Source of the DNA: Alphaproteobacteria bacterium
GTDB lineage: Bacteria; Pseudomonadota; Alphaproteobacteria; Bin95
DNA: 64,000 nucleotides
Assembly: GCA_963665325.3 (NCBI GenBank)
Contig: CAXXWS020000003.1
Coordinates: 128,001-192,000, forward strand
Direction: 5' to 3'
The notes below the pieces were generated by a model. That model had not been told where the DNA came from and did no database searches. It saw only the letters and a list, made by a program, of their open reading frames with translations. Positions 9,051 through 9,981 of the stretch are shown one piece after another. The number at the start of each line of letters is the position of its first letter. The stretch's first letter is position 1. The position numbers and the translations under genes were made by a program.

Positions 9051-9296
9051 TCAGGATCCGGCTGGAGTCGCGCCGCAGGCGCGGGCCTGTTCTCTCATTG
9101 AGGCGTAGTCTTTCAGCATCGCAACGATCGCCGAGTCCTCGGGCAGCCGTTCGATCTCGCTCGCGGCCCGCTCCCGGAAGTCTGCGGCATAAGCGACCAG
9201 GGACGGACAGGCACCTGTAGACCCGGTTTCAGAAGCTCCCGTCGCGCAGGCCGTCAACAAGACCGTCGCGGCCGCCAGACTGATTATTCGTCTCAT
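9051..9296 (-). CDS. Small lipoprotein, Rz1/o-spanin-like
   Basis: 81 aa, [17 protein letters not shown] with lipobox LTAC (Cys17); CPSLVAY...[24 protein letters not shown] resembles lipoproteins of alphaproteobacterial prophage lysis cassettes (recalled similarity). Confidence 0.7.
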
Positions 9297-9981
9297 TGTT
9301 GCCGCCCTTGCTGCCGTCGCCATCTCCGTCACCATCGCCATCCCCGTCGCCATCGCCGTCGCCATCCCCATCCCCGTCACCGTCGCCATCGCCGTCTCCG
9401 TCTCCGTCGCCATCGCCGTCTCCGTCTCCGTCGCCATCGCCGTCTCCGTCTCCGTCGCCATCGCCGTCTCCGTCCCCGTCCCCATCGCCGTCTCCATCCC
9501 CGTCGCCGTCTCCATCCCCGTCGCCGTCTCCATCCCCGTCGCCATCGCCGTCCCCATCCCCGTCGCCGTCTCCGTCCCCATCCCCGTCGCCGTCCCCATC
9601 CCCGTCTCCGTCTCCGTCCCCGTCTCCGTCTCCGTCTCCGTCCCCGTCGCCGTCTCCGTCCCCATCCCCGTCGCCGTCCCCATCCCCGTCGCCGTCTCCG
9701 TCTCCATCGCCGTCGCCGTCTCCGTCCCCGTCGCCATCGCCATCGCCGTCTCCGTCCCCGTCGCCATCGCCATCGCCATCGCCGTCTCCGTCCCCGTCCC
9801 CGTCGCCATCGCCATCGCCGTTGGCGCGAGCTTCCTGGAAAATATGAGGTGGCGCTTTTCCACCCAGAATGTGGATTCCGTTGCTCATCGTCAGGACAAA
9901 CGTCACAAGGAGGCCGCTCAGAGCCAGAGCCAGTCGCCGCAGAAAAGTCGGTGTACGCCCGTGAACCTTCTTCGAATTCAT
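9229..9981 (-). CDS. Exported or membrane-anchored poly(Gly-Asp) protein with (GD)84
   Basis: GGGAG RBS before ATG 9981; basic N-terminus and hydrophobic [21 protein letters not shown] then 84 GD units with variation only at third codon positions; 28-aa tail. Confidence 0.75.
9316..9819 (-). repeat. 504-bp hexanucleotide tandem repeat (GGN GAY)x84
   Basis: Directly visible; contains higher-order units such as three identical 24-mers at 9385-9456. Confidence 0.97.

Follow-up and report, generated by a model that had tools for sequence, protein, structure and literature searches.

The locus

The 64,000-nucleotide stretch of DNA analysed here, hereafter the window, derives from an alphaproteobacterial genome (GenBank assembly GCA_963665325.3, contig CAXXWS020000003.1). 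It carries on its reverse strand a gene for a protein dominated by a Gly-Asp repeat, the GD protein, the 3′ end of which is overlapped in a different reading frame by a gene for a small lipoprotein. An earlier note, made from the sequence alone, compared this layout with that of a phage spanin pair, and our translation of the open reading frames (ORFs) agrees with it on the coordinates of the two genes, their overlap, the lipobox and the hydrophobic segment (Table 1). The gene order is GD protein, lipoprotein, an oxygenase of the Asp/Asn β-hydroxylase family (the hydroxylase) and then a convergent gene encoding a toroid protein. The gene spacing is tight and operon-like.

A GGGAG motif resembling a Shine-Dalgarno sequence is placed 8 nt ahead of the ATG of the GD gene. 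The protein begins with a basic segment (Lys4, Lys5, Arg9, Arg15 and Arg16), then, as read from the sequence, a single hydrophobic stretch from Leu17 to Met32, followed by the conserved juxtamembrane stretch NGIxxLGGKxPxHxFQEA(R/H). In the window protein the short segment just before the repeat ends FQEARAN. The Gly-Asp units are then unbroken, with the array in the DNA placed at 9313-9821 by TRF, and 15 residues separate the tract from a 13-residue C-terminal tail. Across all six frames of the 5.58-Mb genome this is the only run of at least six Gly-Asp units, and the repeat is far beyond chance. The nucleotide differences among the 84 units all fall at codon position 3, with seven hexamer types and no more than three identical units in succession.

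The antisense (Ser-Pro)n frame is equally synonymous. We chose GD as the coding frame because conserved N- and C-termini are in frame with it in relatives, as are poly-Asp or RTX continuations elsewhere. The antisense frame is itself open for 183 codons (window 9296-9847, forward strand), mirroring the tract, and most likely arises as a by-product, GGN-GAY giving TCN-CCR when read backwards. Matches of the GD protein to TrAA12 in Pfam and to MSCRAMM Sdr/Clf families in NCBIfam were discarded as compositional. A scan of 8200-10400 gave no promoter-like and two terminator-like sites, a result at chance level.

The lipoprotein matches the profile phrog_26778 with E 6.4e-18, residues 12-74 aligning with positions 4-64 of the 65 in the profile. 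To judge from its sequence it has the lipobox and outer-membrane sorting signal of an o-spanin, and the stop codon of the GD gene ends 19 nt past the first base of the lipobox Cys codon. The lipobox Cys is invariant, and Ala at +2 at least 90% conserved, across the lipoprotein alignment (A2). An AF2 model, with a predicted local distance difference test score (pLDDT) of 80.6, presents a flexible 13-residue linker leading to a two-helix hairpin (helices 22-33 and 40-59), in which the conserved C14 and C58 could form a staple. A fold search with this model against viral predicted structures gave nothing at E ≤ 0.001, and a search for homologous proteins returned just four unnamed matches. A match to the Cor exclusion protein (E 0.12) involved the signal peptide only and was set aside. 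Intact ORFs with lipobox, both Cys residues and the tail motif occur in 11 distinct GD loci from alpha- and gammaproteobacterial records, where the lipoproteins are 43-82% identical to that of the window.

Phage-type homologues of the pair

The earlier note stated that such a lipoprotein, and a terminus of the form LRDGxF, occur in prophage lysis cassettes of Alphaproteobacteria, and suggested inspecting the genes upstream of lipoprotein homologues. The link to phages is real. A tblastn search with the lipoprotein finds matches in six phages of Rhodobacter, roseobacters and Rhizobium. In phages RcRudolph, RHph_I20 and CRP-235 the homologue is situated just behind a cell-wall hydrolase/lysozyme gene and one or two small genes. 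Its immediate upstream neighbour encodes a small membrane protein that ends ...RLRDGSA, ...ALRDGLF or ...RLRRDGL, and overlaps the lipoprotein homologue where a full-length lipoprotein ORF is read.

Scanning the window lipoprotein (P0002) against one genome per species produced 43 related loci. In 31 of these an upstream ORF ends in [LM]R..xF, with its stop exactly 19 nt past the first base of the lipobox Cys codon, an offset seen likewise in L004-L010 and in the phage loci L001 and L003. A homologue of M15 peptidase/endolysin is present in 27 of the 43, mostly ending about 190 nt ahead of the lipoprotein match. At L017, for example, the order is an Rcc01698-like tail protein, DUF2793, DUF6127 with one C-terminal transmembrane (TM) segment, a Peptidase_M15_3/PHROG endolysin also with a C-terminal TM segment, phrog_27122, phrog_26778 and then host genes. 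The phage-type membrane partner, phrog_27122, is a protein of 83-91 residues with a TM segment and a charged helix, and both families are entered under 'unknown function' in PHROGs. We note that DUF6127 (one TM segment, a holin candidate), M15 peptidase, phrog_27122 and phrog_26778 make up a common end module of alphaproteobacterial prophages, seen at L017:2778-4231 and in 26 similar loci.

A two-component spanin comprises an inner-membrane protein with one N-terminal TM segment and a lipoprotein, encoded by embedded, overlapped or separated genes. According to Kongari et al. 2018 (PMC6139136), the subunits join via their C-termini, the commonest Cys pattern is none in the i-spanin and two in the o-spanin, and a coiled coil is not predicted for over 120 i-spanins, which means that the helical feature is not absolute. 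By the bioinformatic criteria of that paper, the predicted phrog_27122/phrog_26778 pair is an overlapped two-component spanin. The Cys pattern, none in the membrane partner and two in the lipoprotein, is present here; that the phage-type pair would act as a spanin is suggested by its architecture. A literature search on spanin, Rhodobacter and endolysin returned, among the matches listed, no description of this pair, and in PMC13236601 the word 'spanin' is confined to the reference list.

Decayed copies of the phage-type pair were also observed. In L013, L046-L048 and L050-L053 the i-spanin-like ORF is without its N-terminus and the lipoprotein fragments are without a lipobox; on sequence these look like decaying prophage ends.

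Evidence for a probable chimera

On balance we favour the view that the GD-lipoprotein pair is a chimera, formed when the 3′ end of a prophage i-spanin-like gene, along with the lipoprotein gene overlapping it, was taken up by a (GD)n cassette. The phage-derived nature of the tail and the lipoprotein is well supported by sequence comparison. The whole GD protein does not match the phrog_27122 profile, and the homology is in the tail. In an alignment of 34 sequences (A3) Phe40 is invariant, and Leu31, Leu35, Arg36 and Gly38 are at least 90% conserved in the tail. The alignments A2 and A3 and the tree described below leave out the phage loci L001-L003, the duplicates L012/L060 (both L007) and L066 (L049), L069, and L067, in which the GD gene is cut by the contig end, as well as loci without a parsable lipobox or upstream ORF.

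The N-terminal half, in turn, is not of phage type. The first 54 residues match (GD)n loci only at E < 0.01, giving seven entries among L001-L054, none of them phage-type (one, L012, repeats the contig of L007). Orthologues with the same N-terminus and tail carry 24-83 GD units. Two cassette loci have the character of intermediates in that 30-35 phage-type C-terminal residues are kept past the GD tract, ending ...SEVEDALRNTLDAADRRLRDRDDLARRLRGDRF in L049 and ...YESRLAELRRKMLEALENRPDSSASLSGILRDDKF in L075, for comparison with the phage-type consensus ...QRRMLEAAARRPRDRDELAERLRDGRF.

The geometry of the overlap is conserved, the stop position relative to the lipobox being fixed in all tail-bearing loci. 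Over the same DNA, mean pairwise identity is 0.64 in the frame of the tail versus 0.43 in that of the signal peptide, or 0.53 versus 0.37 when just the GD subset is considered. In a lipoprotein tree, based on 65 alignment columns and poorly resolved, the ten GD-linked rows cluster, with two changes compared to a shuffled mean of 8.9. Eight of the ten form one group with 87/79 support, and the GD-linked rows lie among prophage rows. The proposed spanin-like graft is placed in one proteobacterial lineage, which includes the genome studied here.

The wider (GD)n/oxygenase/toroid cassette

A scan with the hydroxylase gave 55 loci encoding proteins 56-84% identical to that of the window. They come from metagenome-assembled genome (MAG) records of Alpha- and Gammaproteobacteria, Vicinamibacterales and other Acidobacteriota, Thermoanaerobaculia, Gemmatimonadota and Bryobacterales, and include duplicates (L060 equals L007/L012, L066 equals L049, and L102 and L103 are identical sequences). 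The toroid gene is present in 54 of the 55, the exception ending at a contig edge. A run of at least eight Gly-Asp units is found in 52, and in 46 it is upstream, on the same strand and within 1.5 kb. The regulator gene accompanies 11 loci and the lipoprotein only 8. As a control, a run of this length occurs in one of 42 phage-type loci, and that locus (L049) is itself a hydroxylase locus. The cassette thus comprises a secreted or membrane-anchored (GD)n protein, the oxygenase and the toroid protein, a trio seen in 52 of the 55 loci. With a pure (GD)n tract beside the oxygenase and the toroid gene adjacent, the window holds a member of this cassette.

The (GD)n proteins of cassette loci have the tract alone in common; all other parts differ. 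In addition to the window type (a), there is a type with a window-like TM segment and juxtamembrane N-terminus, another short end and no lipoprotein (b, in L062 and L086), a type with lipobox, (GD)n and poly-Asp (c), and one where (GD)n is followed by RTX calcium-binding repeats (d, PF00353, E 1e-85). Type e combines a lipobox and (GD)n with a domain weakly like TbpB barrels, below the cut-off, and in type f, from nine loci, a GD/poly-Asp ORF runs stop-free via a short hydrophobic stretch into the hydroxylase. Compared with cassettes in which the (GD)n protein is a lipoprotein or a fusion with a poly-Asp tail, the window lineage has a TM anchor, a phage-derived tail, the extra lipoprotein and the regulator gene. 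A literature search on repeat terms revealed no bacterial (GD)n envelope protein among the matches listed.

Two features of these relatives deserve mention. The fusions occur in MAGs with Thermoanaerobaculia titles, in L088 (2876-4603), L089, L091, L094, L099, L100, L102, L103 and similar loci, with the hydrophobic stretch PPWQF.AF.PAA.GI and then basic residues between the GD/poly-Asp part and the PF05118 domain. From their sequences these ORFs look like a substrate-enzyme fusion with a membrane-spanning linker. RTX nonapeptide repeats (PF00353, E down to 1e-85) follow (GD)n in frame in L073, L077, L082 and L065, which hints that calcium binding may be part of the role of the tract.

Which came first, the spanin pair or the repeat? 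The earlier note put forward a domesticated spanin pair in which a polyanionic tether had replaced the periplasmic coiled coil. On this reading an ancestral phage pair came first, and a GD repeat later expanded in place of the coiled coil. Tail, overlap and lipoprotein are indeed all phage-type, and L049 and L075, which keep part of the helical region, could be stages of such a replacement. The proposal is nonetheless unlikely as worded. Neither the N-terminal anchor nor the juxtamembrane motif is related to the phage-type protein, and both are common to (GD)n proteins without any spanin-like part. The (GD)n tract with hydroxylase and toroid, known from several phyla, is also far more widespread than the lipoprotein. 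Domestication most likely ran the other way, with the cassette acquiring the spanin-like end.

Proposed history and mechanism

On the simplest history, the capture would have begun with recombination of a type-b (GD)n cassette within a prophage i-spanin-like gene to give an in-frame 3′ fusion. The product would thereby have gained an i-spanin-like C-terminal peptide together with the overlapped o-spanin-like lipoprotein gene, and the retained phage-type piece would later have been trimmed.

The GD protein is predicted to have an N-in orientation in the inner membrane and to extend its (GD)84 chain into the periplasm, and the lipoprotein, given Ala at +2, to go to the outer membrane. The tail, ...L..LRDGxF, may dock on the putatively disulfide-stapled helical hairpin of the lipoprotein in the manner of spanin subunits; since these join via their C-termini (PMC6139136), the conserved tail is the obvious contact candidate. 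A complex prediction with the mature lipoprotein (A2) and a 40-residue tail (A3) gave a median score of 0.31 against a mark of 0.32, was run without controls and is evidence neither way. Docking would leave a polyanionic chain fastened to both membranes. With its contour length of about 60 nm, (GD)84 could span the periplasm and leave length to spare. Having no helical rod, such a complex should no longer disrupt membranes and might serve as an anchor; a lytic function is unlikely because the rod is gone.

We infer that the cytoplasmic oxygenase, perhaps with the toroid protein, modifies Asp residues ahead of export to give a metal-binding (Ca2+/Fe3+) polymer. The (GD)n tract is a candidate substrate because of its near-obligate pairing with a PF05118 oxygenase that is catalytically intact, by its triad, and because of the fusions. 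For bacterial Fe(II)/2-oxoglutarate-dependent Asp β-hydroxylation of a ribosomal peptide there is precedent in SmaO/SmaA (PMC12186529).

Taken as a whole, the proposal is a tentative one: a spanin-type docking module, made up of the C-terminal peptide and the outer-membrane lipoprotein, may have been exapted as a structural staple. It would fasten a poly(Gly-Asp) polyanion, made on ribosomes, modified by enzymes and probably carrying β-hydroxy-Asp, between the two membranes. In symbiotic bacteria the polymer would act as a gel or spacer that binds Ca2+/Fe3+ in the periplasm, encoded by a 3.85-kb unit that moves between species. If true, spanin-type parts would here be put to a non-lytic, trans-envelope use for the first time.

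To our knowledge, no role of spanins beyond the final step of phage lysis is known. In the window a cellular gene cassette appears to have put the interacting end of a spanin-type pair to new use, and the L049 and L075 intermediates point to the trimming of the fusion. The system lends itself to finding which few residues of the membrane partner suffice for lipoprotein binding. It also brings out phrog_27122/phrog_26778 as a spanin-like family without annotation, frequent in prophages of Alphaproteobacteria, and adds a second anchoring mode to an undescribed (GD)n/oxygenase/toroid cassette.

Several considerations weigh against the capture and the tether. The lipoprotein tree is no proof of a single capture, as there are two changes and one clade is merely not rejected (p 0.16 in the approximately unbiased test, p-AU). 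The phage-type pair is spanin-like by predicted architecture only, with 'unknown function' as its label in PHROGs and a membrane protein that is short at 83-91 residues. The overlapping signal peptide of the lipoprotein could carry some of the conservation of the tail. The Ala-Arg-Ala just ahead of the tract could, on sequence, be a signal-peptidase site, which would release the chain; cleavage there is less fitting in relatives, since their QEAH fits the -3/-1 rule poorly. Modification of Asp must precede export because the hydroxylase and the toroid protein are without signal peptides and the tract is predicted to be exported. Finally, PF05118 includes lipid hydroxylases too.

The possible cleavage bears on a second alternative, in which the lipoprotein acts alone, perhaps receiving the modified polyanion at the outer membrane, chaperoning it or helping its export, whilst the GD protein is processed and released and its tail is a passive remnant of the fusion. 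Other lineages use a lipobox, RTX or TbpB-like domain as anchor or secretion signal, so the (GD)n tract need not be fixed at both ends, and the Ala-Arg-Ala sequence would suit this scheme. We hold it to be improbable: conservation of the tail exceeds that of the signal peptide with which it shares its DNA, its stop position is fixed wherever a tail is found, and the cleavage site is not conserved, being QEAH in several relatives.

Might the pair still disrupt membranes, for instance to release vesicles or in programmed lysis, the GD chain standing in for the coiled coil as a spring triggered by calcium? The two-membrane architecture would fit, and the RTX repeats behind GD tracts in other lineages make calcium responsiveness plausible. 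Such a device is highly improbable given that there is no endolysin or holin partner among the window neighbours, nor an endolysin in a genome search for PF08291, that it lacks the helical domain credited with driving spanin action, and that most cassettes are without the lipoprotein.

The other suggestion of the earlier note was phage lysis debris captured with the cargo genes. A reading of the pair as decaying prophage debris beside the cassette, with no present function, would suit the lack of any endolysin, holin or other phage gene in the island, with none found in the genome, and the degenerate lipoprotein fragments elsewhere (L046, L048, L050-L053), but we give it hardly any credence because the tail shows stronger conservation than the signal peptide that overlaps it, the ORFs are intact in 11 distinct GD loci and the gene spacing is tight.

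Comparison with known systems

The Ser-Asp repeat adhesins of staphylococci have a long X-Asp dipeptide tract as envelope spacer that is modified by SdgA/SdgB, enzymes encoded nearby. They differ from the GD protein in being Gram-positive and sortase-anchored, with glycosylation on Ser, and the likeness goes no further than low complexity. Braun lipoprotein (Lpp) and other envelope tethers provide a protein link that involves an outer-membrane lipoprotein and spans the periplasmic space. Lpp itself is a peptidoglycan-bound helical trimer; in the window pair, by comparison, an anchor in the inner membrane and a docked lipoprotein would hold a disordered polyanion.

In common with λ Rz/Rz1 and T4 PseT.3/PseT.2, two phage spanins (PMC6139136), the window has a membrane protein with a predicted N-terminal anchor and a lipoprotein from an overlapping gene in another frame. 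The Ala at +2 of the lipoprotein and the distribution of Cys residues, none in the membrane partner and two in the lipoprotein, are also spanin-like, the latter being the commonest spanin pattern. The homologues of the window pair are likewise beside endolysins, at the end of prophage late regions. The differences are substantial. The window pair is outside a lysis cassette, a setting retained by its phage-type homologues alone. In place of a helical periplasmic domain there are 84 Gly-Asp units, with 13 phage-type residues remaining. The N-terminal half is non-phage, the pair is probably co-transcribed with an oxygenase gene, and membrane disruption is not expected. With respect to the PHROG families, the window lipoprotein is a member of phrog_26778 and the last 13 residues of the GD protein align with the C-terminus of the phrog_27122 type, whereas the phage-type partner is a protein of just 83-91 residues with a charged helix.

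SmaO/SmaA (PMC12186529) also involves a bacterial 2-oxoglutarate oxygenase that hydroxylates Asp in a peptide encoded beside its own gene. There the target is a small precursor of a peptide made by the ribosome and modified after translation (RiPP) and the partner an HD-domain protein; in the window the putative target is a 250-residue envelope protein and the partner a toroid protein.

Neighbouring genes and the island

Table 1. Positions of the GD-lipoprotein pair, its parts and the adjacent genes in the window.
Feature	Position	Strand	Details	Basis
Gene for (GD)84 envelope protein, probably chimeric	9229..9981	-	250 aa; coordinates include stop	ORF translation
N-terminal hydrophobic segment R15-M32, predicted N-in membrane anchor	9886..9939	-	kept in (GD)n loci with and without lipoprotein	sequence reading
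84 unbroken Gly-Asp units, G55-D222	9316..9819	-		codon-level count
C-terminal 13-residue tail of GD protein	9232..9270	-	homologous to C-terminus of phage-type membrane protein (phrog_27122 family)	alignment A3
Gene for o-spanin-like lipoprotein	9051..9296	-	81 aa; lipobox LTAC, Cys17 at 9246-9248, Ala +2, conserved C30 and C74	
Overlap of GD and lipoprotein genes	9229..9296	-	68 nt, different frames	
Fe(II)/2-oxoglutarate oxygenase, Asp/Asn β-hydroxylase family	8397..9044	-	215 aa	PF05118, 56.1 bits against cut-off 22.6
(α/α)6-toroid protein gene, convergent to hydroxylase	7074..8408	+	444 aa; start uncertain, 6990 or 7074	
Membrane-associated helix-turn-helix (HTH) regulator	6289..6849	+	186 aa	NCBIfam LIC13292 family, E 2.4e-13, below curated cut-off
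Five-gene island (regulator, toroid, hydroxylase, lipoprotein, GD protein)	6242..10095	.	3.85 kb; common to congeneric genomes	

The hydroxylase gene starts 6 nt past the lipoprotein stop and encodes no signal peptide. The protein belongs to PF05118, with a score above the gathering cut-off, and its iron triad, His127-x-Asp129...His175, is invariant in 53 homologues. A sequence search of Protein Data Bank (PDB) chains found L-proline cis-4-hydroxylase alone (E 0.0011), and LpxO is a faint match (E 0.23).

The toroid protein has no family match in Pfam or NCBIfam and none to PDB chains at E ≤ 1 in a sequence search. Its AF2 model (pLDDT 80.2) is an (α/α)6 toroid, which Foldseek likens to class II terpene cyclases, GH76 mannanases and AGE-type epimerases. 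The resemblance is at the level of fold only, with a template modelling (TM) score of about 0.5 and 9-18% identity; the Atlas leads agree with it. Although outside Pfam and NCBIfam families, the protein is highly conserved, with a mean column identity of 77% over 53 sequences across phyla and about 120 invariant positions.

The genes around the pair encode an AidB-type acyl-CoA dehydrogenase, an enoyl-CoA hydratase, the PF05118 hydroxylase and two proteins without a Pfam match. The earlier note saw no phage gene nearby, and the neighbours are indeed metabolic or cassette genes. The PF08291 endolysin was not found anywhere in the genome. The genome also gave no match to phrog_27122, a weak blank as control genomes gave none either.

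By blastn the island is 80% identical over 3858 nt to L115 and 79% to L116, whilst L117 is 72-73% identical over most of it, 6532-9766. Outside the island, the window from 1 to 16000 and the 18-kb loci L115, L116 and L117 have no similarity. The five genes form a mobile island sitting in different places, because the block is common to four congeneric genomes while the flanks are unrelated. There are no terminal repeats of note at its edges, and no integrase was seen with it.

Among relatives, the lipoprotein is present in 8 of 41 genomes, counting G000. The four same-genus lipoprotein loci (L005-L008) all comprise GD protein, overlapped lipoprotein, hydroxylase and convergent toroid gene, with GD tracts of 142, 134, 48 and 144 residues, respectively. 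The matches from other genera are phage-type cassettes (L009 and L010) and a weak partial match (L011). Within the order the hydroxylase occurs in 5 of 37 genomes, exactly the five same-genus genomes with the lipoprotein.

Contigs of four sequencing runs (X1, X6, X10 and X16) cover 6242-9300 in pieces, which speaks to presence only. No RNA run with this stretch was among those listed. The pieces from X1 are without differences over 6242-8029 and 8006-9300; those from X10, labelled a sponge metagenome, have 60 differences in 1570 letters. All four runs, one of which is labelled a viral metagenome, hold near-identical contigs together with several more divergent copies of conserved enzyme segments, which fits with several carriers living in one community.

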